Shown: positions 7,510 through 31,797 of the stretch, piece after piece
How positions within the stretch are numbered: the stretch's first letter is position 1
Layout of the letters: each line of letters starts with the position of its first letter
Assembly (NCBI GenBank): GCA_000091205.1
Contig: AP006499.2
DNA length: 64,000 bases
From: Cyanidioschyzon merolae
Lineage: Eukaryota
Strand: one strand, 5' to 3'
Position numbers and translations under genes: made by a program
The notes under the pieces: model-generated
The model's input: the letters and a program-made list of their open reading frames with translations, nothing else
What the model was told of the DNA's origin: nothing
The model's database searches: none

Positions 7510-7805
7510 AGGTTTCTGGGGCTACGTTTGGACACCTTTCGTCGTGGCGAGGGAAAAATCTGCAGGGAGTTTCAAATAACGCTGCAATATGGACGACTAT
7601 GATGAGAAGACGCTTCTTTCCCCAACTGAGGCGCAACGGTTTTTACACCACTGCCAATATGACGATTAAGGCAAGTACTTACCTCTGAGAGTCCTGATGC
7701 AACCCTGTCAAAAACATATAGCGCAAAAGCACGAATAAGGTCACGGTCCTTCTGTGAGTGGCAGTATTTCACAACGTTGAGTTTTACTCGAAGCAGCTGG
7801 AAACC

Positions 7806-9038
7806 CTCTCTCCTGATATGACACTTGCGCTGCACGCGCCCCGACTGCTAGCGTCTGCGCCTGGAGCATGCGATGCCTCATGGGTCACTCAGTAGCGCTT
7901 GTAGTCTCCGCTATTCACTCGGCTCTTGATGGAACGGAGGAACTGCTGGGTCCGCCTGATGACCCCACACGAGCACCATCTCAGGGCACCCTGAGCGAAA
8001 ATTCTCGGCATGCAAGTTCTCCTTGTGTGCGCTCGAATAACAGCTCGACACATGTACGCTCATCACTGGCGATGAGCGCGCCTCTGCCCACAGCTGCAGC
8101 GTGTTCCGTTGCAGCGGAAGCTGGGCTCCGAGGAAGCCGCGCTCGATGCGCACGCATAGATTCATGTTTGATGTGCGGCGCACATGCTACTGAAATGCAA
8201 TGCTGAAGAGCGACCGGATGGACAACGCCCGCGATGTGCGCCTGCGTGCGTCTACGCACACACTATGCAGTCTCAGAAAGACGCAACAGGGGCATATGCA
8301 GTAACGTCCGCGCAGCAGGAGCGACTCAACCGCGCAGACGCTTGTAGCGTTTTGTAAAGTAACGAAGCCGGTATCGATGCGCCGTTCTGTGGACCGCCAG
8401 TTGACGTGCTGTACGCTACAGTTGGGATCGACCATACAGAGCGCGAAAGTCCCGCTTCGTACTCATATCTGGACTGTGGCGCGCTGCATGCAGATTCACC
8501 GGCGCTGGCAAGTTCCGATCATGTTGCGATGATTTGTGGGCAGCGTGCAGCGGCGCCAGACGTCGCATGTATCGGGTGATGCGTGTGCGACTTGATTTGC
8601 AATGCGGCTGCACGATATGGTAGCGCGCGGCCGCACCAGCGACGTTCATTCCCTGTGCCTATGATAGCTGAGATGCGCATGGCGTGCGTGTGCGTCCGCA
8701 GCCATGCTCGTGCGTGCGCGCGCGAGCGGCGAAAGCTGCGGCTGGCGATGGCACACGGATGGAGCTGACGGCGTATACCGCTGTTGCTCGCCAGAGCATG
8801 CGCACATCCGGGAAGGTCACGCAAGATTCATCAATCATGGAGCGTAACGGCGGGACGCATCTTGTTTGGGTGTCAGTGCGCCGGCGCAGCGGCCCCCGGG
8901 CCATCGGCGATGGCGCTGTGCCTTTCGCACGGGGCGTTTGGTACTTGGGTCCGCCAGTGACGCTGCATGCGGCCGGACGATTGGCGAGCGGTCGACCGGG
9001 CGGGGGTGGAGTCCCTTGCAACCGAGCTACGGCGGGTG
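7806..9038. repeat. Right arm of inverted repeat IR-C
   Basis: It is the reverse complement of 2805-4039 (see the left arm). Confidence 0.9.
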
Positions 9039-10253: not shown

Positions 10254-12872
10254 TTATGGAAACTCATAGGCGACTTCCAAAAGAGCAAAATCACATCCCG
10301 GTGCCGCGCGATACAGAGCCAGCAGGCAAGCCATTGGTTTGTTACGAATAGCGGCGAGTCCCTTCTCACGTAGCGAGCCGCGCAAGCTTGCGCCGAAGCG
10401 ACCCAGAAATGCTGTGCGTTTGTTGTAAGTTTTGGCGATCCCTGACCCGAAAACAGTTCTTCCAGGGGTGATGACGACAGGGATCCAGCTATTGTTGTCA
10501 TTCAGAGCGCGAAGGTGCCCAATGTGAATCTCATCGAAGTAAACAGTAGCGAATGAGGATCCTGCTAGCCCTAAAGCCTTCGCTTCCTCGAGCTGAGCCT
10601 TCTCAGGTTTTGAGGTGGATCTGAAGCACGAAAGATATCCGTATACCAGAACCTCTCGTCTTTCTCGTAGAAAGATTTCCGACTGGACTGCTCTAAGTCG
10701 CTCAAACTCAATGCAAAGGTTTTCAATTTTCTCCTGGCCTCCATACAGTGCTGCTAATTGCTCTAGCGTGTCAGTGTATCGAAAGGTGCTATGCTGGATC
10801 CTTCCAAGTGCGAATGTTTGACGTATCTTGACAGATTTTTTCCCCTCCGAGGATTGAATCCATCGAGCTAATGCCAGTATACGACGAACAAGACGATCCT
10901 GCAGAATTACTTTCGGAATATTTTCAGGGAGGCTCGTGCCCTCCGTTCTTTTTTGCTGTTCTCTTACTCCATCTAGCAGGTACATTGAGGTCCATCGGGT
11001 CGAATGTACCTCCATGATGCTGACACCATCAAAAGGAGCATTGTACAGCTCTCGCTTTTCGAGGGATGTTAGCAGGATTGCCGCACCTGGAACGCAGATA
11101 GCATCAAATGCATCGCGTTGGGAGGTTTCATAAAGGCGAATGCAGACGTCTCGCGCTTCGGATCCATCGCGCGCCAAAATGATTCTATATTTCCTAAAAA
11201 TGTAGTAGTCATCTGATGCACTCAGTATTTGCGGTGCACTCGTCCGTTCTGCAGACCTGTACGTCCCGCGCTCTCGATACAGAGGTGACACATGTGTCAC
11301 AATGCATGCTAGAGAGAAATACGAGCGGTCGTCCCATGCATCCAGAGCGCTGGTAAGAATGCAGGGGTGGTAGAGTTCACCCGTTCGACCACCGCCAAGC
11401 TTTGCAATAGGTCCGAAATCAAGTAACTCCTCATAATTATCTGAAAGCTTCCGAATAATGCCCTGGGGCGATGATGCATTCAGGTGAATCTCGCCTCTGC
11501 GTACACGGTAATTCTCTATGATAAGGATGTCACCGAGTTGAATGTGATAAAAATATTTGGAACAAAGCGAATTCCACACGACAACAGTAGCAGAATCCGC
11601 ACCGTCACCTATCTCAAATTCGAATTTGAATGGCACTGACTGCCGCATGTCACTCTTTTTCGGCCATGGCATTAGGGACGTCTTTCTGAGGACGCGCCCG
11701 ATGATTGGTCGCTTCACGTCTCCCATCAGCGCCCTGGCGATGCGCACCGCTGCACTAGTGACTGATTTAATCGAAGCTGGGTCTTCGACACGCTCTACGT
11801 TGCTAGGGTCTCGCAATCTGGAATCGACAGGTAAGGCATCAAACGCTCCAGGACCAAGATAACTCTTTCTCGACGATGCCAAAGGGACATTTGCAGCAGT
11901 CTCAAGCGGGGTGGATGACGTTGTCCAAGCGCATGTCAGGGGAACGTCTATCCAAAAATCCTCGTGGGGTCGACGTAGTACGAGACAGTCATACACAACG
12001 ATTACTCGAGGCGGGTAGAGTCCGCGCAATTCGTTGAAACGAACTGACCATTTTCTTATTTCTAAAATGCTCCCTCGATCTAGGTCACCGGACTGGACGA
12101 TTGAATTCAAATGTGGGTGTAGGCAAAAGCGTGTTTTCGTCTGCTCAACCGGATTGCAGACGGTAATGTCATACGCATCTGCATCCATCTCAGGGATTTC
12201 ATCTTTTGTGCCGTTGACCGTAAACCAATAGGCTTGATCCCGGATATAATGCCGGACGCATAGAACTAGGAACACGATTGAACCGCGGCATTCTTCCCCA
12301 GGAGCACACTCGTGGAGCTTTTCCGTGCCAGCAGTCGTGAATATTTGGTCTCGTTCCTTTGGCTCTGAAGAGCCGCTCTGAACCAGGCTTGAAGAGGCTG
12401 AAACCTGACCTGTGTTGGACTTTGCAAGCTTTTGATTTGCGACTTTTAACGTGCCCTCCCTCGGCCGCTTGCGCTGGTTTCCACGGTTTCCAGTCTGTCG
12501 CTTGCTGCGTGAGTCCCGCGAGTCAGACCCTTCGACCTGTACTGTACGATTCTCTACAGCCTTCTGCAGCGGCTTTGCTCGACTCTTTTGCAGCTCTTCG
12601 TCTTGCCTCCTTTGGAAAATAGGTTTCACATAGTCATCAGCCTTGGTGTCGCCGAAGCGTCCACTTTTACGAGGCATTAACCGTTCTGTACGAGAACGTT
12701 TGTTGTTTTCTCGGATACACTCGCAATCAGAAATTTGCGCCACATTCAAATTGGGCGCGTGCTGGACAGATGGTGCATCATAAGCACAGGATGTATCCAG
12801 CTGCGCGCAGCTTCCGCCTATATCAGTCAAAGATAGAATAGACCCCGTGAGGAAAGTCGGACGTACTCGCAC
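10254..12872 (-). CDS. Hypothetical nuclear protein (872 aa): basic low-complexity N-terminus, central OB-fold-like segment
   Basis: Long uninterrupted ORF. The K/R-rich region is at aa 55-160. 'FKFEFEIGDGADSATVVVWNSLCSKYFYHIQLGDILIIENYRVRRGE' is OB-fold-like. No family was recognised. The first ~23 codons lie inside repeat DR-A, so the true start is probably a downstream Met. Confidence 0.5.
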   Translation of the reverse strand: MRVRPTFLTGSILSLTDIGGSCAQLDTSCAYDAPSVQHAPNLNVAQISDCECIRENNKRSRTERLMPRKSGRFGDTKADDYVKPIFQRRQDEELQKSRAKPLQKAVENRTVQVEGSDSRDSRSKRQTGNRGNQRKRPREGTLKVANQKLAKSNTGQVSASSSLVQSGSSEPKERDQIFTTAGTEKLHECAPGEECRGSIVFLVLCVRHYIRDQAYWFTVNGTKDEIPEMDADAYDITVCNPVEQTKTRFCLHPHLNSIVQSGDLDRGSILEIRKWSVRFNELRGLYPPRVIVVYDCLVLRRPHEDFWIDVPLTCAWTTSSTPLETAANVPLASSRKSYLGPGAFDALPVDSRLRDPSNVERVEDPASIKSVTSAAVRIARALMGDVKRPIIGRVLRKTSLMPWPKKSDMRQSVPFKFEFEIGDGADSATVVVWNSLCSKYFYHIQLGDILIIENYRVRRGEIHLNASSPQGIIRKLSDNYEELLDFGPIAKLGGGRTGELYHPCILTSALDAWDDRSYFSLACIVTHVSPLYRERGTYRSAERTSAPQILSASDDYYIFRKYRIILARDGSEARDVCIRLYETSQRDAFDAICVPGAAILLTSLEKRELYNAPFDGVSIMEVHSTRWTSMYLLDGVREQQKRTEGTSLPENIPKVILQDRLVRRILALARWIQSSEGKKSVKIRQTFALGRIQHSTFRYTDTLEQLAALYGGQEKIENLCIEFERLRAVQSEIFLRERREVLVYGYLSCFRSTSKPEKAQLEEAKALGLAGSSFATVYFDEIHIGHLRALNDNNSWIPVVITPGRTVFGSGIAKTYNKRTAFLGRFGASLRGSLREKGLAAIRNKPMACLLALYRAAPGCDFALLEVAYEFP

Positions 12873-15621
12873 TATATTCTGGACCTATTTTGCACGACCA
12901 TCAGCACAAGTCATTGCAGTTTGCACCGCGACCGCTTCCTTCTCCTTTCCCGTATCTCCGACTTTCAATACGCTGGCGTCTCCTAGCCCTCCAGCTTCGA
13001 TGTCAGCAGGCGAAGGATGCCGATGGCTGCGTTCATTCGAACCCAGAGTTTCCTGCTTCCAGCCCTCATCGACGTACTTCATGCAAAGGCGGAAGTTGTG
13101 ATCTGCGCTTCTTTTAGCATTTTCATCCTTTTTGTCCACAACTCCGGTGCACCCTTCGCAGCGAGGACACTTGCCCGTTGTCCGGTGCCGCCATACGTCC
13201 ATCGCACGTCTTGCTCCGAGTGCCGCCCTGTGGCGCATGCCTGCTTGCAGTGTCGCTCGGTACACGCCCTCGACGGGTGCAGAGCGCTCCGCTCCATGCG
13301 CTCTTCAGTTTCTGTGCCCAGCGCCATACCCTGCGATCACAGGCTCGGGCTGGGCGATCCCCGCGGCAAGCACCCTCACTGCTGGGCGCGTAAACGCTCG
13401 CTGCTCGATTCGAGTACTCGGAATCCGCTCCCTCGCACGCTCTTCGTTTTTCGCGTACGCTTCCCATCGAAGCTGCCGACGAGCATCACGCGACTCGAGG
13501 TGCCGTGCCAGCTCATGAGTATTGTGCGCGCAGGTTCCATCCACTTGCGACGATGCGGGTCAGCCATCTGCGACTCCCTTCGTCTCCGGTCGCTCGCTCG
13601 CTCGCTTGCGTGTTCTTCTATCCCCATACTCGTTCGCTTCCGCTTCAGCGAAGATGGCAGGCGCGGGAGGAGAAGTCACGACTGTGGGCGTAACTCGGAC
13701 GTTTCCGATCCCGTGCCCCGGGACGGGGTGTCGGTTTCCACATGGGCGTCGGGCTTCGCCTCGGGTCTCACGGAGGCGCTGGTGCAACGCTTCGCTCTCC
13801 TTGGGCTCCTGCCGTTGCTAAGTGCACTGGATTGCAGGTTCACGAGGCCACGCATCTGTACAGCTTGCTGCTCATCGTCGCCGTGTTTCCTGTTCTGAGC
13901 AGGGGTGCGTTGGAGCTCTGATGGGGCCTTGAGGCATGTAGGGCGCTCACGACTGATAGCGGTGGATGCTGCCAGGCCATCGGTCTCGAACGAGGACACC
14001 ACGCCTCCTCGACTTTATGTGAGCGTTCTGTTTCTATCTGTTCCCTGCCTGTCGCATCTCTCTTTAGCGTCGTTCGCTTTTCGTTCCCCCAGCGGTTCAT
14101 GAGTGTCTCCGAAGTTTCGGGCGAAATTTGCGTAGTACGCTTCATGTACTCTATGCTGTCGATGGATACCTCCTCTTCTTCGATGTGCTCCTTGGCCTCC
14201 ATAGGACGTTTCCATGCCCTAATCCCTCGTGCGTGGGCGCCCACTTCGCAGCGAGGCGAAAAAGCCGCGAACCGGGGCGCGCGTACGAGCGACCTATAAA
14301 TGCGTTTACAGCAAGGCGAAAATCCATTCCATTCAGGGGCTCTGGAACAGTTCCCGAGGTGCAGAGGCTGTTTCACTCGCTCGGGTAGGCACTCGCAGGC
14401 TGCAGGTCTATAGTCTCCTCGACATGTTCGTCTTCCAGGATACTCAACGGAGGCTCACGCGCTCTGTATATCCGCCCAGCATATTCAAGTCGGCGAAGCG
14501 CCCGTCATGAAGAGCTCGTCCATGCCGTCCAGGCTGGTATCTGAGTCGTCATCCGCACGTATCCACGTCATCGAATCCTTCACGCGCCATGGGAATGAAT
14601 GCTGGCATGATCCAGGGTCGCGCGGCGTAGTTTTCCGCCCATATACACCTTTGAGTTATCCAGGCTGATTTGGGTCGCGAAGCGAATGCTGGCCTCGAAA
14701 TGCGCAACGTCGTTCGGCTATGGAGCCAAAGTGCCCGCGACGTCGATGAAAGCACAGTGCAGGTGAGGTGTGTCCCGACTACGCTTCGAGACAGTGACGG
14801 CATGAAAGGCCATCGATGCCAACGGTGCATCTACGAAGTTGTTCGGTTTCTCAGGGACCCCGATGCACTGGACGTACACGGTCCTAGGCAGGAGGTAAGC
14901 GCGCCACTGACGCATGCTGCAAAGAAGCGCATGTTTGCGGACGCGGAATCTGATATCCGGCGGGTGCGGGTGCATTTCGAAGTATCCCTTGCCGACAGTG
15001 GTGCCGTAGAATACCTCATACAAACAGCGAAGGAGGGAGTTTCCGAGATCGTATCCCGTGAGATGTAGCGCACTGCTTATTTGGGATGTGGTTTCGTTGA
15101 TGGTTGGAAAGCGAGAATATTTTGTGTTTCAAACGGAATCGATTATATGAGGTGAGGATTTGAACATACTTTCGGTATGAGCTCTTGAAGAAGTATTCGC
15201 ACGAAAACTTCCAACTTTTGCGTCGTCAACCGAGCGTAGCGGCCTGGTGCGCCCACGAGTAGCCTTGAAACATGGAGATCGGAAGCGTGCAGAATGCCTG
15301 ACTTGAGCGTGCAACGCGTAACTAAAGGAAAAGAGTTCAGGCTTCCTTGTACGAATTGCATCATGATATCGGCTATTTTAGGCAACGGTATGTGAGGATA
15401 TCTCGAATCACCTTGATGCTGGTGATGTAACGAATCCCTTCGGTGCAAAGTCGAGGGAGCCACTTTGAAGAGTCGACCGAGAATCCTAGAACGATGCATG
15501 AGTCCTGAGGCCCTCATTGCTGGACTATGAATACTCGGGTCCTGCATCTGAAAATGAGTTCGGGTGAAAAATCGAAATCGAGGAACACAGGCAGCAGCTC
15601 CGTGTTCTACTTCACTCCGAC
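12858..15621 (+). repeat. DR-A copy 1: 2.76-kb GC-rich non-coding direct repeat (full length)
   Basis: Collinear with 28111-30874 at a constant offset of 15253, with about 10 substitutions. Its 5' 1.34 kb is collinear with 18615-19951 at offset 5757, with no differences seen. There are no long or conserved ORFs. It contains (CTCG)n at ~13588. Confidence 0.9.
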
Positions 15622-15858
15622 CCGGGTGCCGACTCCGGCGATGCATCGCTGTGACGGCCAGCGGGCCCGCTGAGCTGCTTGCCCGGCGGCGGCAAACGGA
15701 CACGCTGTTGAGTGCACTCGGGGCACACGTTGATCTCGCGCCGGCGTCTATGCGACGCGTTTGAATAGGAACAAACAACAGCAATTTGCTCAACGAACAT
15801 AGTTCTGTGCCAAAGCTTTCCTGGGGAAGGCAGCTATCGAATATGCACAACTTTTAAT

Positions 15859-17118
15859 ATGCCGCAGTACGGAGCTCAAAATTGTTTTCTTCTGCGGGAG
15901 CTTTTCAACCATGTGGGGGATGGAGGATCCTTTTGGCAAAGACAAGCTCTCGTGCTGGTATTCGTGTGCCTCGCGGCGTTTTTGAATTCCATCACAGTCA
16001 TACTTCATTTCGTTGGCCAGAACTGGATGGCTCGTTGCTTGCAGTTCCATCTCGCAAAACAGGTTGTGAGGGCTCAGAGGAGGGCCGCGCAAGACAGAGC
16101 TTTTCGCTTAGGCAGCACGGTTGGACACACCGGCACCGGGGGCACACCTGAGTTTCTGTGCGCTTGCAAAGGCTGTAGGAAACTGAGCTCTGTGCTGAAC
16201 CCACAACAACGGCAAGCACTTGAGGCGAGCAGAGTTGTTAGAGTGAGGAAGCTTCTCGGTCAGCAAGGACTGCACGCTGAGGCCGCGAACAGCTCACAAT
16301 GGTGCTCTGACCTAACAATCATGCGCTATCTTGACTCGTACGGCTCTTGCCCTGCTCTCGCGGCGAAATATTTAGCCGCTACCATTAAGTGGAGGATCCA
16401 AAATTCTGTCCATGAGCTTACTGTCACTGAGTTTACTGAGGAGCTCAGAAAAGGTGTCGTTTCTTTCGGTGGGTTTGATTCGCAGTCACGACCGGTTTTC
16501 ATCGTCCGGTTCGTACCTGGTTTCAGCTTGAGACTTTTAATTTTCATGCTTGAAGTTGGTGAAAGCATCATTCGTAACTCTATGGAGCCTGATGTGCTGC
16601 GCAAGGATGCGCCAAGCGCATCAGCCACTCCAGGTGTCTGGCAAAGGATATACCGTTCAATGTTTCGGGGTATGAAACGGGTAGAATCTGACCGCAAGGT
16701 GCAAAATCGGGATCGATGGGTCTGGATCGTGGAATGGGGGAGCGTTCAGAGAGAATGCACCCGGGAAGCTTGCACGCAATGCACCCCTTCCGAAGACAGC
16801 CCTGTCCCTACAAAATACGCCGGCGGTGTCTCCGCATCGGAGCTTATAGGCGCCTTCCGAATATGTAATGAGCACTACCCGAACCGCTTGCATGCTGCAT
16901 ACGTCCTTGGAGCACCGGAACCTATCGTATCGCTGTTCAGAATCTTGGCAAAGAAGTCTACGAAGCGGAAGGTGCGATTTGTGCGACTAAGAGACGGATG
17001 TGATAGGGGTTCGCTTAGCGAATACGGTCCAATATGGCGCCGGCCCTGGGCTGCTACGGATTTTATTCAGCTGATCAACTATATTGATGGATCACTTGCC
17101 GTACAGAAGAGCAAATAA
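15859..17118 (+). CDS. CRAL-TRIO / Sec14-like lipid-transfer protein
   Basis: The CRAL-TRIO N-domain is 'SDLTIMRYLDSYGSCPALAAKYLAATIKWRIQNSVHELTVTEF'. The C-lobe 'AYVLGAPEPIVSLFRILAKKSTKRKVRFV' resembles Sec14 'FIINAPWIFS...KIHVL'. The N-terminal ~100 aa are probably not coding. Confidence 0.55.
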   Translation: MPQYGAQNCFLLRELFNHVGDGGSFWQRQALVLVFVCLAAFLNSITVILHFVGQNWMARCLQFHLAKQVVRAQRRAAQDRAFRLGSTVGHTGTGGTPEFLCACKGCRKLSSVLNPQQRQALEASRVVRVRKLLGQQGLHAEAANSSQWCSDLTIMRYLDSYGSCPALAAKYLAATIKWRIQNSVHELTVTEFTEELRKGVVSFGGFDSQSRPVFIVRFVPGFSLRLLIFMLEVGESIIRNSMEPDVLRKDAPSASATPGVWQRIYRSMFRGMKRVESDRKVQNRDRWVWIVEWGSVQRECTREACTQCTPSEDSPVPTKYAGGVSASELIGAFRICNEHYPNRLHAAYVLGAPEPIVSLFRILAKKSTKRKVRFVRLRDGCDRGSLSEYGPIWRRPWAATDFIQLINYIDGSLAVQKSK

Positions 17119-17674
17119 GGCAGTCCATATACAATTTACAGCTCGAGTGCTTCGCCTAAGCATTCGATATCGCGAATTGATCAGAATTTCTTCTGTTAGT
17201 TATGATGCGGCGGTCGGCTTTGTGCGTGCAAAACCCAAACAATGGAACAATGGTGACTGTTTTCTACGCGTTGCAGCCATCCGTTCCCACGTGCGACTCG
17301 GTTTCAGGACCTTCGGATCAGTACCTGAGCTCGCCACTTATTCGAATACTTTTCATGCTATTGGACGAAGCAGATCACCTCCGCGAAAGTTGACACCGCA
17401 TGAGACTTATTTCGTGGACGCGATGTCCAGAAGGCATGCTTAAAGAGCGGCTTGGATGCCTTGACGAGGTGCAGTTCGCCATCTGGCATTTAGGAGAAAA
17501 TGGCCGTACGAGCAAGGGCAGCAGAATCTGCGAGCATTCTAAAGGAAGAATATATGAAGCATCATCTCGAAGATGGCATGGCAGAATTATCTCATCTTTT
17601 ACCACCGTCAAATACTATTCCCCAAGCTTCTAAAATCCTCCGAAGCGTACGTCTCTTACAGTCCCTTTGCCCCT

Positions 17675-18319
17675 TCACTGTAATGGTTGAAAGTTCGTTA
17701 TCTGCTCGAAAGGCATCTTCCCGTTCAAGAACTCACCATGGATGATGCCCGCAAAGCCGAGCATGGCAAGTCGCCCGTTATTCACTTCCCGATCCCGCAT
17801 GGCCTTGTCGTTCGGCAAGTTGAGGGGATTGAAGCCCAGCTCACCAGGCTTCCGCCCTTTCCATTCCATATCGGAATAGAGCACCTTGCCACGGTGGAGC
17901 AGGAACTCAAGAAACCCGATGAATGCTAAGATCTGAATCATGGCCCCAGACTTGACGAAATAGTCATGGGCTGGTCCAGCGAGTTTAGGAGCCCCCGCGA
18001 AGAACGGAAACTGGTAAAACTCGGTTACGAAGAAGTGCAGGCAAGCGAGCATTGCGACGCGCCCGTTCTTAATCTCGCCCTCTTGAAGCCAGTTAACGTC
18101 GAACGCATCAGAGAAGCGAAGCGGGTCAAAACCACGATATCCCGGCATATCAGGCGACAGGTTAGGCGGTTTCGAAAGGAACGGTAGCGCCGGCGACTGC
18201 TCCATTTTTAGAGTAGCATAACCCGAAGCATGTCTCGAACGGATAGCGCTGGTGCCAGTTGCCTTGGATACCGTATTGGCGCGCTGAACAAGTGGAGCGA
18301 AACTCACGAAAGCGTACAT
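17675..18319 (-). CDS. Light-harvesting complex protein, fucoxanthin-chlorophyll a/c (FCP/Lhc) family, last exon
   Basis: Helix 1 is 'EGEIKNGRVAMLACLHF'. Helix 3 is 'REVNNGRLAMLGFAGIIHGEF'. 'IAFIGFLE' is identical to diatom FCP. 'GFDPL' is present. The 'FVS|FAP' motif sits only 6 aa from the ORF Met. Confidence 0.85.
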   Translation of the reverse strand: MYAFVSFAPLVQRANTVSKATGTSAIRSRHASGYATLKMEQSPALPFLSKPPNLSPDMPGYRGFDPLRFSDAFDVNWLQEGEIKNGRVAMLACLHFFVTEFYQFPFFAGAPKLAGPAHDYFVKSGAMIQILAFIGFLEFLLHRGKVLYSDMEWKGRKPGELGFNPLNLPNDKAMRDREVNNGRLAMLGFAGIIHGEFLNGKMPFEQITNFQPLQ

Positions 18320-18614
18320 TATCCAACAGTTGCCTCTGTCGAGAAAGAACGATCACCACACAACCCGAGGGCTTCTAGCGAGAATCTCCGGGCATTTTAC
18401 AGCGCACATGGAGCTGTTGCCGATCGCGGGAGCTCTGCGCCTGCACGCCGCTGCTGTGAGCTCGACGCTCGAAAAGCGATCGTGCCTTCCGAGGCGTCGC
18501 GCGTCACCACAAAATCGGTGGGTGCGCTCGAGCCAGCAACCTCGCCGATGCTGCAGCGGGCGCGCAGCTTCCGCCTATATCAGTCAAAGATAGAATAGAC
18601 CCCGTGAGGAAAGT

Positions 18615-19951
18615 CGGACGTACTCGCACTATATTCTGGACCTATTTTGCACGACCATCAGCACAAGTCATTGCAGTTTGCACCGCGACCGCTTCCTTCT
18701 CCTTTCCCGTATCTCCGACTTTCAATACGCTGGCGTCTCCTAGCCCTCCAGCTTCGATGTCAGCAGGCGAAGGATGCCGATGGCTGCGTTCATTCGAACC
18801 CAGAGTTTCCTGCTTCCAGCCCTCATCGACGTACTTCATGCAAAGGCGGAAGTTGTGATCTGCGCTTCTTTTAGCATTTTCATCCTTTTTGTCCACAACT
18901 CCGGTGCACCCTTCGCAGCGAGGACACTTGCCCGTTGTCCGGTGCCGCCATACGTCCATCGCACGTCTTGCTCCGAGTGCCGCCCTGTGGCGCATGCCTG
19001 CTTGCAGTGTCGCTCGGTACACGCCCTCGACGGGTGCAGAGCGCTCCGCTCCATGCGCTCTTCAGTTTCTGTGCCCAGCGCCATACCCTGCGATCACAGG
19101 CTCGGGCTGGGCGATCCCCGCGGCAAGCACCCTCACTGCTGGGCGCGTAAACGCTCGCTGCTCGATTCGAGTACTCGGAATCCGCTCCCTCGCACGCTCT
19201 TCGTTTTTCGCGTACGCTTCCCATCGAAGCTGCCGACGAGCATCACGCGACTCGAGGTGCCGTGCCAGCTCATGAGTATTGTGCGCGCAGGTTCCATCCA
19301 CTTGCGACGATGCGGGTCAGCCATCTGCGACTCCCTTCGTCTCCGGTCGCTCGCTCGCTCGCTTGCGTGTTCTTCTATCCCCATACTCGTTCGCTTCCGC
19401 TTCAGCGAAGATGGCAGGCGCGGGAGGAGAAGTCACGACTGTGGGCGTAACTCGGACGTTTCCGATCCCGTGCCCCGGGACGGGGTGTCGGTTTCCACAT
19501 GGGCGTCGGGCTTCGCCTCGGGTCTCACGGAGGCGCTGGTGCAACGCTTCGCTCTCCTTGGGCTCCTGCCGTTGCTGAGTGCACTGGATTGCAGGTTCAC
19601 GAGGCCACGCATCTGTACAGCTTGCTGCTCATCGTCGCCGTGTTTCCTGTTCTGAGCAGGGGTGCGTTGGAGCTCTGATGGGGCCTTGAGGCATGTAGGG
19701 CGCTCACGACTGATAGCGGTGGATGCTGCCAGGCCATCGGTCTCGAACGAGGACACCACGCCTCCTCGACTTTATGTGAGCGTTCTGTTTCTATCTGTTC
19801 CCTGCCTGTCGCATCTCTCTTTAGCGTCGTTCGCTTTTCGTTCCCCCAGCGGTTCATGAGTGTCTCCGAAGTTTCGGGCGAAATTTGCGTAGTACGCTTC
19901 ATGTACTCTATGCTGTCGATGGATACCTCCTCTTCTTCGATGTGCTCCTTG
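18615..19951 (+). repeat. DR-A copy 2: 5' half-copy (1.34 kb), identical to copy 1
   Basis: All mirrored ORF peptides are identical to copy 1. An extra ~55 bp of upstream flank (18560-18614) also matches copy 1 (12803-12857) but not copy 3. The repeat ends abruptly at 19951, with 'ctccttg|ttctaacg' versus copy 1 'ctccttg|gcctcc'. Confidence 0.9.
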
Positions 19952-20155
19952 TTCTAACGCGGCCTCAAAACCTTTTTCTTGATCGCGGGACACCTACTTA
20001 GCTGGAACATTGTATGCAAAATCGCTCATGTTTGTTAATACAGAGACCCCGGAGGCACATTCACATGCACGTTCGGGCCCACATTCTCATTCGAAAAAAC
20101 TAACATACAAGTAAGTTCCACAATGCCAAATCTGGCGTGGTTTATGGCGGTACAA

Positions 20156-21922
20156 CTATTTTCTGCTATTCATAGGCTTGGGATCACGAAAAAGTTTCTC
20201 GTCGCTCAGACCATGTGAGTTGAGAAATGTCACTAGAAGTCGCACACGTTTTTCGATTTTTGTAGGCTCTGCCACAACTGAAGTATCCACAGATCGTTCC
20301 GCAGTAGGACACGTGTTTCGTAGCACTTGGCGGAGAGGAGAAAGAGCTTTTCTTCCATAAAAGGAGCAAAGTTCAATCAGAAGATGGCCGTAAAACTCGT
20401 TCGTCTTCTTTTCATTCAGATAACACTGGAGAATAGCTTCTAAAGCCTGATACAGCGAAGCGCTTCGTGAACTACGGCTTAGTAACTTGTAAATTCTTGA
20501 AGCGGCTTCTATGAAATTCACAGAGGAGGCCAAAATCTCAACAACTGATCTGCCAGTCGCGCTCCAGATACGATTCCTATCCAGTAAAGAAGAGATTCGA
20601 TCCTTGGATTCCAAGAGCTCAGTAGCTCCTGACGTACCCTTCGACGAAGCCCTTCTGGTGAGGCTAGAATTCTCCCAAAGGATCCCGCCATCAGTTACTA
20701 GGCTCTCCTTGCTCGCATCATCACAAACTTCGGGGCGTTTTGAAATAGTCGCGTTTGCTCTAATGCGTTTTTCGTAAACGAAAGATGATCCTAGTTTGGC
20801 ATGAACCCACAGTAAAGCTTCGGGCACAGGTTCCAGAGCGCTCTGAGCGCTCAGCTCTTGTGATCGACTTTCGCGTACGACGTCCGCAATAACTGTTTCT
20901 ATCATGTAAACTGTGCAGCCTTCATGAAACTCTCTGAAGTGGCTGCTTCTTTCGCATCCACACGAGGTAGTCTCATGCATGTTCCTACAGATACTTCTTA
21001 GTTGAGCCTCGAATGCCGCAAACTTTTCGGGAAAAGAATTACGAAGATGCAAACCACAGAGCTTCGTGACATGAAGCATACCAACGAGACCGACTGCGTT
21101 TCCGCTGTTGAGCACGGATGACTTGGCAAGTTCAAATACGACTTCCCATTCAATCATTCCGCCCAGAAACAGATGGCATAGCGGCGTTAAAGCATCAAGC
21201 AAATTTTGCAAGTCTAATCTTCCGGATGCTCCAACATTTTGGAGCCTCTCTGTGACTTTCACGAAAAAGCAGTTGACGAAACTAGCGTCGACGGTGCAGT
21301 GAAGATAAATCAGAACAGCACACAAAGCTGCACAGTTAAATGTTGATACGCCTTCATGCTGCCCTTTTGGGTTTTCCATAGCAACCGAATTTTCAAACGT
21401 GCGCCCCATGCGAGCAGAACAAAGAACTGTACAAAATATGTCTCTCAAATGGACGAACCCAAGGGGGTCATGACGAATCTCAGAAAAATACTTGTAAAGT
21501 TTGCTGCAAGTGAGGTCCAGATTCGTGTCCGAAACTCGGTTAAGAATGCTGCTCAGTTGCGAAACGAGACTATCAATCTCATTTTGGGTCCAGGTTTTTC
21601 CCTTTTCCCGCGCACTCGACAGCTTGGTAGCCGTCCCCTCTTGTGGGGCCACATCTTCGTCAACTGCATCTGCGGAAAGACTGGTCTCAGCACCAGACTT
21701 CATCGACTTAACCTTCTGGTTGTTGCTTTTTAAAAGCGGTCCTATGATCACGCCCAGAGAGTCTACGTCGTTTGAAAGAAACTCCGCAGCCTCCCACGTC
21801 TTCAAATCAGTTTGAGGAAAGGCGTACGGGCTCCCACGGCTCTTTCTCTTTCTTGAAAACTTCCGATCGAAGCCTTCAATCTTTCTCTTCAATCTGCTTT
21901 GCAGGCTCAGCTCCTCGTCCAT
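20156..21922 (-). CDS. Hypothetical alpha-helical protein (588 aa), possibly MIF4G-like
   Basis: Long ORF. The 'LVSQLSSILNRVSDTNLDLTCSKLYKYF' segment loosely resembles the start of a MIF4G domain. No firm family assignment. Confidence 0.4.
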   Translation of the reverse strand: MDEELSLQSRLKRKIEGFDRKFSRKRKSRGSPYAFPQTDLKTWEAAEFLSNDVDSLGVIIGPLLKSNNQKVKSMKSGAETSLSADAVDEDVAPQEGTATKLSSAREKGKTWTQNEIDSLVSQLSSILNRVSDTNLDLTCSKLYKYFSEIRHDPLGFVHLRDIFCTVLCSARMGRTFENSVAMENPKGQHEGVSTFNCAALCAVLIYLHCTVDASFVNCFFVKVTERLQNVGASGRLDLQNLLDALTPLCHLFLGGMIEWEVVFELAKSSVLNSGNAVGLVGMLHVTKLCGLHLRNSFPEKFAAFEAQLRSICRNMHETTSCGCERSSHFREFHEGCTVYMIETVIADVVRESRSQELSAQSALEPVPEALLWVHAKLGSSFVYEKRIRANATISKRPEVCDDASKESLVTDGGILWENSSLTRRASSKGTSGATELLESKDRISSLLDRNRIWSATGRSVVEILASSVNFIEAASRIYKLLSRSSRSASLYQALEAILQCYLNEKKTNEFYGHLLIELCSFYGRKALSPLRQVLRNTCPTAERSVDTSVVAEPTKIEKRVRLLVTFLNSHGLSDEKLFRDPKPMNSRK

Positions 21923-22033
21923 GGTCAGCTAAACCCGTCTCCAGTAAAGCAAGGGAAACCAGCTGTGCACGCACGCCTTTTATCGAGGGACTGCCGTTTT
22001 CGAAATCGCGTTGTATGGATCGCTAACTGCGCC

Positions 22034-23390
22034 CATGCAGGAGTGATTTGGAACTGGTCCCACGTAATTTACTCGGTCGAACACTCTAGTCTTTCAGCCT
22101 CTTCCGTCCGTCATTAACTTCAGCCTTTGCGAGCAGTTTCTGCGTATGTTTCCTTTCCTTTTCCCGTACCTCCGGCTTTAAGTGTGCCGGTACCTCACTT
22201 CCATCCAGCTCCGTTCGAAGCAGTCGAAGGATGGTAATAGTGGCCTTAGGGTCCCGAGTTCATTGCCTACGGTTGCTTTCTACGCATTTCATGCACAGAC
22301 GGTAGTTGCGGCCTGCGCGTCACTTCCCATTTTTATTTTCTATGCATACAGCCTACGTGTGCCCTTCGCTGCGGTGAGACTCGGCCCGGTTCAGTTGTTC
22401 ACATATTTCTACAATGTCCCGTCCTCCGCGGGCACCCCTGTGGCTCGAGGTAGCTTGCTATATCGCTCAGTATATGCCTTTGACCCGTACAGAGGTCTTG
22501 TATCGATGCCCTCCTCGGTTTTTCGCGCGCGGTGCCGTATCCTACGATCATGGGCTTCTTCTGGACGGTTTTCTCAGCGAACATGCTGAAGGCTGCATGC
22601 ACGTGCGAACCTTGTTCCATTTGATAAAAGATTTCTTGTATGCGTGAATGCCCTTGATGGTGCACGCACCGGTAGGTTAATCCCGCATGGAGAAGTCTAG
22701 AAATTCCGATCCGAGTGCGCTTCCTCTGTGGAGAGCGGTGACGCAGACGCCACAGGGAGCGATCGTTGTCATGACTGAAGACGGAGTCCAAAAACATTCT
22801 CCAAGCGAACAGACGACTCAAGAGCCACTCGGAGCGCATCCCTAGAAGGTACCATGCTCCTGCAGAGTCTTATTTAATCGACGGCCGCTAAAAGAGGTAG
22901 ACCAGTTCGTCGAACAAAATCGACTGTTGAACTTGGCAAGTTAGGTCAACTTTCTGAACGACTTTGTGAACATGTCGTTCATGGACGACGTAGAGCCTAT
23001 TTTCTCGTCAATTCATAGGCACGAATTACCGCGACAATGAGTTGCCTTGAAGCAGAGAGATCCGCAACATGAAGAACGCGGGATATGAAAATGTTACAAG
23101 AAAAGAAAGGAAAATACCATGGGTGTGGCAGTATTAATTGGAAACGGTGCCGGCCATTGTACGAACGCTCGTTCCACGGCACCGCGAATCATCCTGATTC
23201 CGGTGATGCGTTTAACTCCGGCAGCGAAACGTCGATGTAAACTTTCCGAAAATACGACCAAGCACCCTGAACTAAGAATGAAACAGTCAAGCCTTATTGC
23301 GACACCTGAGAGAGTCGAGGCTGAACGACTGAAAACCTGGGGGAAGATCATAGCACAAGTATAGAGCAAACCATTCAGTGGTGCACTTAA
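22034..23390. repeat. Left arm of 1.36-kb inverted repeat (IR-B)
   Basis: Its reverse complement matches 24859-26216. The ORF peptides are mirrored with 1-2 aa differences (SMFAEK/SIFAEK, SEHAEG/SENAEG). A degenerate extension runs to ~22011. Confidence 0.9.
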
Positions 23391-24858
23391 TGCTTGCGCA
23401 TATGGTTACTGTGCACGGGATAATAGTATGGAGAGATCTCTTCTATACATCATCAATATGCTGTGTGGGAGGAAGGAATTCATATTCCTACCGCGTAAAA
23501 ACTCGTGCATTTCTATTCGCGTTCGGACAGTAACGTCTTCTAGTCACTGTCTGCGTCACCTTCGAAGACAAAAAAGCTTTGCTCGCAAAACTGACATTTT
23601 TCCGGAATATTTTTACAACGCCCGCAAATAATCGCTAATCCTACTCTATAACCGAATTGTTTAAATAACGGGTACCGGGAAAGATCTGGTTGTTCTACAA
23701 ATTGTGCACTGAACGTTCTGCGCGTGATGCATTTTACTTCTATAGAAAATTGAATTTTCAACACCGAAACCGCTTATTGCGCGCAACCTAAATCGGCGCA
23801 GCGGATTGAGTTTTGATTTACTGCTTGGAAGCTAACTGTTCTATGCTGAATATTCTCTGCGATACGGCAATTCTTTGATCACTTAGTAGACGTCGTTCTA
23901 CTTTTAACATATTCTAACTCTTTTGGGGTTGGCGTGTTCAATTTCGCCTGGCCCGTTCTAGCTGGGGCTGTCTAAAAAGACCAGTTGTCTCTTGTCGTGC
24001 GTTCCATTGCTGCCCGAATGCCATTTCATATTTATTGGTTCAAACCCAAAAAAACTGTCTGACTCTGCTCCGTTGTATCAAGCGAGCCACTTCAATGGGT
24101 CAGAGGTTGTTGAGAACGTCGTATTCTTTCAACCATTAACACAGTTTCAGAAGACGACCGAAGGTTTGCTGGCTGGGACAAGATTTTGCGAAAATTTGCA
24201 GTGCAGCAAATCGGGGATCGATTATTCTTAACAAGTAGAAATGAGATCAAGCTCGAAGAATCAATGAAAATGTGTTTATTCTGCCGTAGGTCGCTCGTTT
24301 TCATCCTTCTGTGCACCCATTATTGTTGGATGTTGTTGCGCTTGAGATGAAGACCCTTTCATAGCTCTCCTAGAATAGAAGTTCATTAGAAATGAAAACT
24401 GCACGATTCAGAAATAAGCTACAGATTCAGGAGTATCTGTTTTGATTCATTCTATTCTCTTCAATTTTTGCTGCCCAAAAAATGCATGTCCAGAGCCCCG
24501 ACGATTCTAGCTAAGCCCTATCTTTCCAGTTTTGCGAACCAGAGTAGTTTTCGACACTAGACATCAAATATTCGGCGTAGAGCGAGGCCGTTTATGATTT
24601 TGTAGCAGAAGAGAGCAAAGCATTCAATTCACGCGTGGTATCTCAGATCAAATGCAGAGTCTCAATCATGACCGTGCCATTTCCATGGCTTCATTTTAGT
24701 GGTGTATCTTCAGGATGTTTTCTGCAGCCGCTGACCGCAGGAAACCACAGTTTCATCGTACACAGACGCTAATTCACCTTGATGAGAGGCTATGGCAGGC
24801 ATATTGCGATGCAGGCGGATGCTGCGACCACAGCACTTCTTTGTACTTCAGTGTCAGC

Positions 24859-26216
24859 TTTAAGTGCACCACTGAATGGTTTGCTCTATACTTGTGCTAT
24901 GATCTTCCCCCAGGTTTTCAGTCGTTCAGCCTCGACTCTCTCAGGTGTCGCAATAAGGCTTGACTGTTTCATTCTTAGTTCAGGGTGCTTGGTCGTATTT
25001 TCGGAAAGTTTACATCGACGTTTCGCTGCCGGAGTTAAACGCATCACCGGAATCAGGATGATTCGCGGTGCCGTGGAACGAGCGTTCGTACAATGGCCGG
25101 CACCGTTTCCAATTAATACTGCCACACCCATGGTATTTTCCTTTCTTTTCTTGTAACATTTTCATATCCCGCGTTCTTCATGTTGCGGATCTCTCTGCTT
25201 CAAGGCAACTCATTGTCGCGGTAATTCGTGCCTATGAATTGACGAGAAAATAGGCTCTACGTCGTCCATGAACGACATGTTCACAAAGTCGTTCAGAAAG
25301 TTGACCTAACTTGCCAAGTTCAACAGTCGATTTTGTTCGACGAACTGGTCTACCTCTTTTAGCGGCCGTCGATTAAATAAGACTCTGCAGGAGCATGGTA
25401 CCTTCTAGGGATGCGCTCCGAGTGGCTCTTGAGTCGTCTGTTCGCTTGGAGAATGTTTTTGGACTCCGTCTTCAGTCATGACAACGATCGCTCCCTGTGG
25501 CGTCTGCGTCACCGCTCTCCACAGAGGAAGCGCACTCGGATCGGAATTTCTAGACTTCTCCATGCGGGATTAACCTACCGGTGCGTGCACCATCAAGGGC
25601 ATTCACGCATACAAGAAATCTTTTATCAAATGGAACAAGGTTCGCACGTGCATGCAGCCTTCAGCATTTTCGCTGAGAAAACCGTCCAGAAGAAGCCCAT
25701 GATCGTAGGATACGGCACCGCGCGCGAAAAACCGAGGAGGGCATCGATACAAGACCTCTGTACGGGTCAAAGGCATATACTGAGCGATATAGCAAGCTAC
25801 CTCGAGCCACAGGGGTGCCCGCGGAGGACGGGACATTGTAGAAATATGTGAACAACTGAACCGGGCCGAGTCTCACCGCAGCGAAGGGCACACGTAGGCT
25901 GTATGCATAGAAAATAAAAATGGGAAGTGACGCGCAGGCCGCAACTACCGTCTGTGCATGAAATGCGTAGAAAGCAACCGTAGGCAATGAACTCGGGACC
26001 CTAAGGCCACTATTACCATCCTTCGACTGCTTCGAACGGAGCTGGATGGAAGTGAGGTACCGGCACACTTAAAGCCGGAGGTACGGGAAAAGGAAAGGAA
26101 ACATACGCAGAAACTGCTCGCAAAGGCTGAAGTTAATGACGGACGGAAGAGGCTGAAAGACTAGAGTGTTCGACCGAGTAAATTACGTGGGACCAGTTCC
26201 AAATCACTCCTGCATG
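24859..26216. repeat. Right arm of inverted repeat IR-B
   Basis: It is the reverse complement of 22034-23390. The inner junction is sharp, with 'ggtgcacttaa' shared and flanks diverging. Confidence 0.9.
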
Positions 26217-26886
26217 AGCGCATTCCATACAATGATCACCTCTGGCAAGCTCGAATCGCCCGAGAAACCTTGAAAGCATTCTATACTTTTTCAGAATTGG
26301 AGGGAAAATTGAAAGCTTTGCCTCAAAACGATTGATAACAAAAAAGGCTGCCTAACCCGAAACCCCGAACTCATACGTCCGTACGCTTGACTTAAAAACT
26401 CGTGCATGAAAACTATTCGAGATTGCCGTATACCAAAAAGTAGATCGATTCATCACATAAGTGCATATCTGCACCCTTTCGCTAATCTGAAACTTGTTCG
26501 TCTGTGGGTTCCAGGTCGCGTGAATAACTCTGCTTGAAGATACAAATCATGATAACGTGTGAAGTCTATGAATTACCACTGGATTGATGAAAAATTTCTC
26601 AGCATATGCGCATCACCTACTGTTTAAAAAGCTCTTGAGAATTTTTACAGAACATGCTCACAATTTCGAAATGCGCGGTTACTTGGTAAGCGACTCTCGT
26701 CTAGGCTGTACTGAACTCGGGGAGTATCTGATAATGAGATGCAGAAATATTGCAAGTATCTAGGCTCTCGAAAGCTTCTCATACCTTGCTAAGGATCACT
26801 GCCTGAAGCATGGCTGATCCTGGGAACATCGCTGTGGAAAATTCAGTTCCTCTAAATTAAGCGTTCTGTAAGTTTGTAGCCAGAAT

Positions 26887-27912
26887 ATGGTATTTGTTAG
26901 GGTACTAGCCAAACCTATTACCTTTCGCTATCTTTCCTTGATTTTAATTTTATACGGAAGTCTTTCTGCTTCTATTGTTGCTGAGAAAAATTGCGTAGTC
27001 TTGGCGGCAAATGTTTTCAACAACGTAGGAACGGTAGACCTGTTTCACACGCTCCTCTCTGACTTAGAGGGAATGCTACAAGCCGCTGGGTTTTCCACAG
27101 GCCTGTGCATCTACGAAGACAACTCGAGGGATGGTACCGACGTTCGAGTTTCCCAGTGGAATCAGTCCCGGCGAGGAACACCGTTCACGAGGATCCTTGC
27201 AGACAAGACACCCCCCACGGCAACGGAACGCGTGTCGAGAATAGCAGTTGTTCGCAGCCGTTTGCTGAATCTTATCCATGAGGTTCTGGCGGAAATGCAA
27301 AATTGTTCTGGACGGTATATATTATTTTTTAACGATGTTGTCTTCGAACCATCGGATGTTCATAAGATGGTGCTAGACGGAATCCGGCAGAACTTTGACA
27401 TGCTCTGCGCAGTGGACGTCTATCGAGGGTTTTATGACCGTTGGGTTACTCGGGATGCCTCTGGATTGATCCCATCGCGGTGGGCATCTGTCTTCTTCAC
27501 CGGGAAAACTGGTTCCAGAATACGCAATAAAGATGCAACTGAGTGGCGGACAGATTTTTGGCCTTCGAGAGCCTGCTGGAATGGAGCTGTTTTGGTTAAC
27601 GCAGAAAGTGCACCGCGCAGTTTCCGCAGTGCGAGGAATGACGAATGCTATGCTTCAGAATGCAAGCTTTTTGTTGACGATCTCTTGAAGGAACGTGGCG
27701 GCCAAGCGCGTGTTGCGGTGAGACTCGATACGCTTGTGGCGTACGACGTTATCCATCTCTTACTACATAAGTTTGTTATCAGGACATATGCCTCCCATAT
27801 TGCTGCTTTTCAAAGCCTCGGAGAACTCATTGTGAAAGCGAAGCATCGCTATCAGGCGGAGAGGGTTCTCCAATCAGACCCCTGTCCGAAATTACCAATG
27901 CTTTGTTGTTGA
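26887..27912 (+). CDS. Putative type II membrane GT-A-fold glycosyltransferase-like protein
   Basis: The N-terminal hydrophobic segment is 'YLSLILILYGSLSASIVA'. 'LCIYEDNSRDGTDV' resembles the GT2/GT-A 'DDGSTDGT' nucleotide-sugar motif. 'ILFFNDVVFEP' is a possible DxD equivalent. It is a 341-aa ORF. Confidence 0.35.
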   Translation: MVFVRVLAKPITFRYLSLILILYGSLSASIVAEKNCVVLAANVFNNVGTVDLFHTLLSDLEGMLQAAGFSTGLCIYEDNSRDGTDVRVSQWNQSRRGTPFTRILADKTPPTATERVSRIAVVRSRLLNLIHEVLAEMQNCSGRYILFFNDVVFEPSDVHKMVLDGIRQNFDMLCAVDVYRGFYDRWVTRDASGLIPSRWASVFFTGKTGSRIRNKDATEWRTDFWPSRACWNGAVLVNAESAPRSFRSARNDECYASECKLFVDDLLKERGGQARVAVRLDTLVAYDVIHLLLHKFVIRTYASHIAAFQSLGELIVKAKHRYQAERVLQSDPCPKLPMLCC

Positions 27913-28110
27913 TTGCTACGGAAATGTTTTGAACTGTTTCACGAATCATTGTTATTTATTTTCAAAAGTAACTCATGAAACTCTCGCAAAGAATTGAAGC
28001 GCATGTGGCCATCCTCCTGTAAGGCGCTTAGCCGTTTAAAAACCATTAATATGGCCCACGCAGATCGTCTTAGACCTATATTAATTTCAGATGGAGGAGA
28101 TCCTCGCACA

Positions 28111-30874: not shown

Positions 30875-31797
30875 ATGAGTCCTGAGCGAGCCCAATAGGC
30901 GCAGGCTTCCATTAACTATGGAATCGGAGCTGTCGAGGTAACCATAAGCAAGAACTGCTAAACATTCCTGTATCTTCTCCATATTACGTGCGCAACCAAG
31001 TAGTAATGAGTCTCACAGGGTTTTGATTATGCTTATGTACCGCCTACGGTCGAAGCATTGTATTTTTATAGGGCATCCCGCTTCCTGGAGCTACTCGCTC
31101 AAAGGCTGGAAACTGTTCTGCAACCAGTTTTTATCCATGATACTGCTGGGGAATAGGTTTAAAAGCTTTCAGAGATTAAATTCCATTTTGTTAGAATGTT
31201 CGATGCCACTTTTGCGGGAACGTAAACCATATTTTTGTGGTTCTGAATTACTTTCCGCGTTCCGGATCCTCTGTTTGTTGGTGTACCTGCGCTTTGCTTG
31301 CATATAGAATTTCTGAAATCGCTGAAAGCCTGAAAGAGAATATTGAGCCCAAACACATAGAGGAAGACCCGCTGAACGAAGGCCGGTGCGCAGCATGAAG
31401 CGTCATAGCGTGCTCGAGCACCGAAGACAGGCGTCCCAGTGCAGAACAGTGGAAGCTGTTCTACGCCACTATTCTTTTGCATTTATCGTGGTATTCCGTA
31501 TGTCCAGAGAAAAATCAGAAGGTTCGAAATGGGTTCGCGACGTACTCCACCACAATCGTAGGGGCGATATTGTCTTCGAAGCGGACAGGGCTCCTGAACA
31601 TATTATACGGGCGAGAGAGAAAATTTGGTTTCGATCTAATGACCACATGCATCATATTTTTGGGCAGACTTGCCTCTCTTTAGTCTAGCATTTATGGCAT
31701 CAAAAAATAGGCACCATCGGATCCCTTAAAATTGCACATCGCTGGTGCAGTCCAAGGAAGCAACCAATGGTAGTGTGCCGCGCAAGTTTTCAGGGTT

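Follow-up and report, generated by a model that had tools for sequence, protein, structure and literature searches.

A one-ended fragment of a decayed, putatively Tc1/mariner-IS630-type repeat on chromosome 17 of Cyanidioschyzon merolae, probably copied locally from a resident relic

The 64-kb window analysed here, by which we mean the whole stretch of DNA under study, belongs to nuclear chromosome 17 of Cyanidioschyzon merolae 10D, the genome of which has been published as a finished, gap-free sequence (PMC1955436). The host genome is compact, nearly intron-free and eukaryotic, and the neighbouring reading frames carry typical eukaryotic Pfam domains (PPR, LHC, Brr2-like and E(z)). A gene for a CRAL-TRIO protein (15859-17118, plus strand) is followed by Lhcr1 (CMQ142C; 17675-18319, minus strand), CMQ144C (20156-21922, minus strand) and CMQ146C (26887-27912, plus strand). 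Three copies of a repeat called DR-A lie among these genes. As Rfam and tRNA searches of the window found nothing and a comparison with E. coli gave no match, and as the genes are eukaryotic, a bacterial insertion sequence or rRNA identity of DR-A could be ruled out.

Copy 1 of DR-A (12815-15628, minus strand) is a full-length decayed relic of 2814 bp. Copy 3 (28073-30881, minus strand) is a second relic, preceded by a TA at 28071-28072, of which only the segment 28111-30874 is near-identical to copy 1. Copy 2 (18560-19951, minus strand) combines 12 bp of flank in common with copy 1 (18560-18571) and a one-ended DR-A fragment (18572-19951); it is located between Lhcr1 and CMQ144C, 241 bp from the Lhcr1 promoter, 5.7 kb downstream of copy 1 and in the same orientation. 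By self-blastn and a base-by-base three-way comparison, 12803-14194 and 18560-19951 align over 1392 bp without gaps and with one mismatch (13820/19577), where copy 1 carries A and the other two copies carry G, and copies 1 and 2 are direct repeats spaced by exactly 5757 bp. The initial annotation, which saw no difference between them, thus had the geometry right but missed this one. Copies 1 (12858-15621) and 3 (28111-30874) differ at four of 2764 bp (13294, 13753, 13820 and 14131), all four sites being in the half that copy 2 possesses, which gives 0.145% divergence overall and 0.30% over the 1337 bp common to copy 2.

At these four diagnostic sites, copy 2 sides with copy 1 three times and with copy 3 once, at 13820, so that the grouping ((1,2),3) holds in strain 10D; it is further supported by the element terminus, at which copies 1 and 2 have 43 of 43 nt in common, the divergence of copy 3 there being as large as that within the family. 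The proposal that copies 1 and 3 diverged first, by about 0.3%, is therefore sound as regards the grouping and the common half, but the figure does not apply to the full length, nor are the two simple diverged siblings, as discussed below. Beyond 12803, no flank likeness was found between any DR-A copies, and the flanks outside the elements are unrelated. In the metagenome collection, the 22-mer at the start of DR-A occurs in five contigs only, all of them on the three known copies and with only three left-flank contexts among them, which makes DR-A a local three-copy repeat.

DR-A is one form of a larger family. Sensitive nucleotide and translated self-comparisons revealed at least eight copies in the window, in both orientations and in differing intergenic contexts, with about 56% mutual identity (52-60% pairwise). 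The short members of the family are about 1.38 kb long each and show hardly any indels. They comprise I1L (1.38 kb; 22016-23399, minus strand) and its 99.8% identical inverted partner I1R (24851-26224, plus strand), as well as F4 (33518-34893), F5 (48639-49994) and F6 (61740-63130), all three on the plus strand. The family profile matches copy 1 at its two ends, 12815-13413 and 15018-15620, which are conserved with these diverged relatives, and a DR-A-specific interior of 1604 bp (13414-15017, minus strand) stands where the short members have only 178 bp in their centre. This decayed interior gave no Pfam or PDB match; on its minus strand, the motif ATLDHASIH resembles, at the motif level, a remnant of the second-D region of a transposase. 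Family relics, in units of 1.4-2.8 kb, occupy nearly all intergenic spaces of the region and add up to about 14 kb, or about a fifth of the window.

We found no sign that the family encodes a conserved protein in its present state. Neither a 3-periodicity of codons nor a common open frame was detected in the short members, and no conserved frame starts from the invariant GAAGGATG; family-wide conserved coding was rejected on these grounds. A 293-aa reading frame within DR-A, for which no called gene is on record, retrieved only its own near-identical cluster among 5.8 billion proteins and was not retained as a true gene. Searches of solved structures yielded no meaningful match, and the frame-corrected family alignment, used as a homologue query, yielded none at all.

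To classify the family, we used a consensus representing the majority of the short members, read in the orientation opposite to that of the initial annotation. This consensus matches NF033545 of the IS630 family over 190 collinear residues (E=1.8e-6; 27.6 bits for a cut-off of 100) and DDE_3 (E=4e-4; 20.7 bits for a cut-off of 28.6), and the latter match is preceded, in the expected order, by one to HTH_33 (E=0.026). Downstream of the transposase remnant comes a TnpB-like C-terminus that carries RLCMKC...NRDFNAAISIL and matches the Cas12f1-like TNB domain PF07282 from position 5 to position 60 of its 60 positions (E=4.2e-4), under the gathering cut-off. Profile scores under the curated cut-offs are as expected of a consensus made from five decayed copies. 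DR-A itself did not match the transposase or TNB profiles. Stop codons are found throughout its transposase remnant, and neither DR-A nor the consensus shows a recognisable RuvC-I or N-terminal nuclease region. The motif YSPRDRPAQ was considered as a third catalytic motif and rejected, since these nucleotides, read in a different frame, give the TnpB-like VIVGYGAG region.

Intact relatives from metagenomes point in the same direction. P0074 and P0075 match the TnpB-like part (E=7e-32 and 4.5e-27, respectively) and have its motifs in common, P0074 being only 216 aa long. On their contig (L019), the C-terminus of a DDE_3 transposase is found directly upstream, with a score of 33.1 bits that is over the Pfam cut-off, and another relic in the window itself (47344-48000) reaches 30.7 bits with DDE_3. 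As judged from these sequence matches, DR-A appears to be the 2.8-kb form of an ancient, dead transposon family of the Tc1/mariner-IS630 type with a TnpB/Fanzor-like remnant.

This architecture, a DDE_3 transposon with a TnpB-like passenger, has been described for Mariner-type Fanzor1 elements such as Pythium PUl-1 (Bao & Jurka 2013, PMC3627910). Like them, the DR-A family has inverted repeats, a putative transposase remnant with a helix-turn-helix followed by a DDE_3 region and, encoded by the same strand, a TnpB-like region that bears VGYGAG, WEHLT.KC and NRDFNAAI; amplified derivatives with internal deletions exist in both. Unlike PUl-1-type elements, however, the copies of the DR-A family are all decayed, with about 56% pairwise identity and without any intact open reading frame; of TnpB/Fanzor, no more than the C-terminal third can be recognised, and the TA duplication is only weakly visible. 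The mariner transposase of PUl-1 gave no significant match to the window or to the consensus.

A Fanzor-linked family is already known in C. merolae, namely CMe-1A/TE-N2_CMe (Bao & Jurka 2013, PMC3627910), which is probably the same as the 'WSV486-like' interspersed repeat of Nozaki et al. 2007, present in 253 copies (PMC1955436). It resembles the DR-A family in being old, interspersed, Fanzor-linked and of comparable length (3.2 kb, DR-A having 2.8 kb), and it too has left relics in the window. In blastn and tblastn searches, the CMe-1A consensus and the CMe-1 protein matched seven places totalling about 3 kb, including 37132-37764, 57940-58576, 51373-51621, 6633-7181, 48124-48587 and 63200-63746. 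In contrast, the same searches produced zero matches to DR-A, I1 or F4-F6, and CMe-1A has been reported to be devoid of inverted repeats, whereas the DR-A family has them. An identity of DR-A with CMe-1A or with the 'WSV486-like' repeat was rejected, as the published consensus and protein match no member of the family.

Where exactly DR-A ends matters for the interpretation of copy 2, because the initial annotation took the 55 bp upstream of copy 1 for host flank. The family consensus displays 19-bp terminal inverted repeats, its 5' end TGCCAGACTAAAATGGAAC matching the reverse complement of its 3' end TGCCAGATTAAAGTGGAAC at 17 of 19 positions, a value exceeded by none of 5000 shuffles; single decayed copies are not significant alone. 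In copy 1, the inverted repeat of the TnpB-like end (12815-12839, plus strand; CGCCTATATCAGTCAAAGATAGAAT) sits inside the presumed 55-bp flank, and that of the transposase end is at 15604-15628 (minus strand), its outer 7 nt (15622-15628) being unlike copy 3. A strict anchored +1/-1 score of the terminus proved too harsh, and a profile limited to the 47-nt terminal zone did not detect the corresponding zone of DR-A, apart from a weak reverse-strand match at the DR-A 3' end that results from the inverted repeat. We replaced them with a longer profile, built without DR-A and assessed with shuffles, which aligns DR-A from 12815 (profile position 4) with 3.9 bits more than shuffled or random 55-mers (p ~0.01). 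As the profile starts at 12815 and the family inverted repeat can be aligned to 12815-12839, the element most probably accounts for 43 of the 55 bp. Only the outer 12 bp (GCGCGCAGCTTC; 12803-12814) would then be true flank, and they are identical in copies 1 and 2. This boundary, derived from a consensus of only five decayed lineages, is uncertain by a few nucleotides, and if the terminus of DR-A truly reached 12803, there would be no co-duplicated flank. A perfect 12-nt palindrome, GCTGCGCGCAGC, spans 12800-12811 and overlaps the true flank; the left breakpoint of copy 2 falls inside it.

The same reasoning modifies the picture of copy 3. While 12803-12857 and 18560-18614 are indeed identical (55/55 bp) and 28056-28110, upstream of copy 3, is not identical to them, the latter is a diverged homologue of the copy-1 terminus (pairwise p=0.005; family profile p ~0.01), contrary to the assertion that copy 3 lacks this sequence. 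Copy 3 thus has its own diverged termini, which make up its outermost 38 nt on one side and 7 nt on the opposite side. On the latter side, copies 1 and 3 are unlike each other in their last 7-8 nt, yet each of them agrees with the family consensus at six of eight positions. A TA unambiguously abuts 3 of 11 predicted ends, or 5 of 13 when gapped placements are included, which is weakly above chance; the ends of copy 1 abut TC and CC instead.

Copy 2 is a truncated version of this structure. A single inverted repeat is present, together with the TnpB-like remnant and the first 781 bp of DR-A-specific interior next to it, whereas the transposase half and the second inverted repeat are missing; copy 2 matches copy 1 at 12 of 12 bp beyond the inverted repeat. 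At its right breakpoint (19951/19952, equivalent to 14194 in copy 1), homology stops abruptly, as initially reported, and no family homology was found to the right of 19951. Microhomology had been suggested as something to look for there; it amounts to 0 nt at both junctions, and the site shows no target-site duplication. The hexamer GGCCTC recurs 9 nt past the breakpoint, which may be chance or may reflect filler DNA plus microhomology; for the 9-nt stretch itself, the rest of the window offered only chance-level k-mers as a template. With a single repeat, 12 bp of flank in common with copy 1, no duplication and a stop-filled transposase remnant, copy 2 is not a structure that cut-and-paste transposition could generate directly, and it did not arise by canonical end-to-end transposition. 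The initial annotation had reached the same view from the 55-bp flank and the sharp internal breakpoint, the first of which no longer stands as an argument in that form.

Information on the age of copy 2 comes from the contigs of several metagenome samples, which have about 99.85% identity to the window. Their unique DNA differs by about 0.15% from that of 10D, and every environmental contig across the site has copy 2 in place. One of them (L006) is colinear with the window over 16741-21782 and spans both junctions of copy 2; L016 spans the right junction, L010/L011 and L018 the left one, and junctions are also present in L001 and L007. Copy 2 must then date back at least to the separation of 10D from its environmental relatives, and its derivation from copy 1 cannot be called 'very recent', a qualification that had relied on the absence of any difference. 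Of two candidates for an empty site, L017 is chimeric and starts with 320 nt of poly-A junk, and L005 is ambiguous, the Lhcr1 gene occurring in another context there. Since no empty-site allele for copy 2 was found among the metagenome contigs, we infer, rather than observe, that the fragment was inserted and not retained, and the same applies to the direction of the copying.

The contigs also bear on the exchange of sequence among the copies. At 13753/19510/29006, 10D has G, G and A in copies 1, 2 and 3, and all environmental contigs have A; at 13929/19686, 10D has T in both copies, and C is found in both contexts in four samples. Only copy 3 of 10D has T at 28547 and G at 29384. Such concerted variant sites fit gene conversion among the copies, an inference weakened by the fact that short-read assemblers collapse the 1.4-kb repeat, three metagenome contigs being 5880-bp cyclic walks of the 5757-bp unit. 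The geometry of copies 1 and 3 offers another argument, as their identity tract (12858-15621) leaves out 43 nt at one end of the element and 7 nt at the other. An identity tract lying within two separately diverged relics argues for gene conversion or templated repair between residents, and not for a fresh insertion. Copies 1 and 3 thus look like two resident relics with homogenised interiors rather than simple diverged transposed copies. Near-identity tracts that do not end at the element ends are likewise seen in known cases of ectopic gene conversion and concerted evolution of dispersed repeats.

Taken together, these data make it likely, in our opinion, that copy 2 is an old piece of a relic of the copy-1 lineage, generated by templated, non-transpositional copying and kept similar to its source by conversion. 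A one-ended piece of the copy-1 relic would have been copied together with 12 bp of its flank, and the product would have entered the Lhcr1-CMQ144C interval, 5.7 kb downstream and without a change of orientation, before the split from the environmental relatives of 10D. The route may have been the templated repair of a break at an ectopic site or else a template switch during replication, with joining without detectable microhomology, and the action of a transposase on both ends would be an unlikely one. Gene conversion would, at least in part, maintain the near-identity of the three DR-A copies and account for the fact that the identity of copies 1 and 3 lies inside independently diverged ends. 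Copy 2 resembles known templated insertions, such as SDSA-type filler DNA and the products of FoSTeS/MMBIR, in being a local, same-orientation copy in which a short flank is co-duplicated with an element that ends abruptly inside. Unlike FoSTeS/MMBIR-type events, however, it shows neither microhomology nor templated filler at its junctions, and the mechanism is deduced from the overall arrangement. The segmental or templated duplication from copy 1 put forward in the initial annotation thus remains the preferred reading on account of the 12-bp flank, without its 55-bp argument and with both mechanism and direction presumptive.

The main rival is that copy 2 began as a complete element, transposed or duplicated, and that one deletion removed its transposase half and perhaps adjacent DNA, conversion then keeping it near-identical to copy 1. 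The left boundary at no more than 12 bp from the element end, the blunt right end without family homology past 19951, and the compactness of the genome, in which deletions are plausible, all agree with this scenario, as do the site patterns, which are compatible with conversion between copies. A later deletion of a full copy would moreover give an identical right end. Nevertheless, the 12 bp past the inverted repeat that are common to copies 1 and 2 are not expected from independent transposition, the TA duplication is absent, all transposase remnants seen are dead, and none of the relatives represented by the metagenome contigs has a longer copy 2. We regard truncation of a full copy as unlikely on balance, though worth keeping in mind.

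Two further scenarios appear much less probable than truncation. An older, diverged relic upstream of Lhcr1 might have been overwritten from its terminus inward by conversion from copy 1, in keeping with the internal identity tract of copies 1 and 3 and with the presence of family relics in nearly all intergenic spaces of the region. Conversion, however, is unable to run into a non-homologous 12-bp flank and needs homology on the right side, where nothing family-like follows 19951, and the DR-A-specific interior reaches the breakpoint; we thus consider overwriting very improbable. Scarcely any better, and if anything marginally worse, is a scenario in which the 5757-bp unit (12803-18559) was first duplicated in tandem and the second unit then mostly deleted. 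It would explain why the direct repeats are exactly 5757 bp apart, and assemblers do yield 5880-bp cyclic contigs from such a structure; nevertheless, two events are needed, the deletion must end exactly at the duplication boundary, and no second CRAL-TRIO/Lhcr1 unit is traceable in the window. Finally, repeats are error-prone in assembly, and two metagenome contigs (L013 and L017) are chimeric, but an assembly artefact in the reference can practically be dismissed, since each junction is crossed by independent contigs of several samples, with L006 running colinearly across both, and the 10D sequence is reported to be gap-free and finished.

Local templated duplication of a dead mobile element, as we favour for copy 2, is a known and ordinary kind of event, and a half copy produced by this routine DNA-level process changes little by itself. 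More is to be learned from its anatomy, as what looked like host flank is for the most part the inverted-repeat terminus of the element, and the three copies are conversion-prone relics and not fresh insertions. It is possible, although we propose it tentatively, that the DR-A family, which fills about a fifth of the window, represents a very old lineage of Tc1/mariner-IS630 transposons that carried a TnpB/Fanzor-like gene and had so far escaped classification, with local gene conversion keeping neighbouring relics near-identical. The family is apparently dense and under-annotated. Transposons have been reported to make up 0.7% of the C. merolae genome, and the coverage of the window by about 14 kb of the DR-A family plus about 3 kb of CMe-1A relics is far over this value; if the density of DR-A holds genome-wide, transposon-derived DNA would exceed the reported proportion by an order of magnitude. 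In the part of this model 'minimal' eukaryotic genome studied here, a large share of the intergenic DNA is derived from a decayed family with DDE_3-like and TnpB-like remnants, distinct from CMe-1A, which matters for repeat annotation, for the way in which H3K27me3-marked repeats are interpreted and for work that traces the history of Fanzor/TnpB in red algae.

Two short members of the DR-A family of decayed, probably Tc1/mariner-IS630-type transposon relics, I1L (22016-23399) and I1R (24851-26224), lie in opposite orientations 1461 bp apart and are 99.8% identical. At one end, the match between them extends beyond the terminal inverted repeat and takes in flanking sequence (TTGTATGG) interrupted by a 7-bp indel, and at the opposite end it stops approximately 14 nt before the end of the element. 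As the boundaries of identity do not coincide with the element ends, the sequences suggest that this pair is another product of recombinational duplication or conversion. Between the near-identical tracts of the 2.8-kb DR-A copies 1 and 3 (12858-15621 and 28111-30874), all four mismatches are confined to the leading 1337 bp, leaving the remaining 1427 bp free of differences, a distribution with a chance probability of about 0.055. The transposase half of these two copies could have been homogenised more recently. Of note, a perfect 12-nt palindrome, GCTGCGCGCAGC, at 12800-12811, spans the left limit of the identity between copy 1 and the fragmentary copy 2, which starts at 12803.

Three metagenome contigs of 5880 bp each (L001, L002 and L003) are circular permutations of a 5757-bp unit to which 123 bp of overlap are added. 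The copy-1/copy-2 repeat gives rise to them as cycles in the assembly graph, and they are not real circles. The Lhcr1 gene was found in an altered context in two other contigs, L005 (205-994), where it adjoins a PIN/PhoH gene, and L017 (321-2812), where a frameshift lies in the segment comprising Lhcr1 and CRAL-TRIO and the first 320 nt are poly-A junk. L017 is probably chimeric. As for L005, it could represent a real additional copy in some populations.

The window also harbours relics of the Fanzor-linked element CMe-1A/TE-N2_CMe (Bao & Jurka 2013), which is distinct from the DR-A family. Its 5' 635 bp is represented at 37132-37764, 51373-51621, and 57940-58332 with 58325-58576, at 73-83% identity to the published consensus; the last two, in inverted orientation, form an 80%-complementary inverted repeat. 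Three derivatives of about 0.5 kb each (6633-7181, 48124-48587 and 63200-63746), two of which adjoin the DR-A family members F5 (48639-49994) and F6 (61740-63130), fuse the N-terminal end of the Fanzor1 gene to its C-terminal end through a roughly common internal deletion. Another inverted repeat, of 1239 bp at 99.3% identity (2805-4043 and 7800-9038), lies on either side of a Toc34-like gene (4619-6538); translated comparison revealed no relationship with the DR-A family.

A further decayed DDE_3 transposase relic on the + strand (47344-48000; 30.7 bits, exceeding the Pfam cut-off) retains the motifs VAIDME, LLLDHVAF and SFSPGFNTIE and was missed by the DR-A family nucleotide profile. It may be a fuller copy or belong to a different subfamily. 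An intact DDE_3 transposase C-terminus is found in the AT-rich metagenome contig L019 (ENA ERZ27301260, 1114 bp), followed approximately 240 bp downstream by an intact reading frame for a 216-aa TnpB-like protein, P0074, related to the TnpB-like remnant of the DR-A family. P0074 has no RuvC-I region. It could be a small accessory protein that Tc1/mariner-like elements have derived from TnpB.
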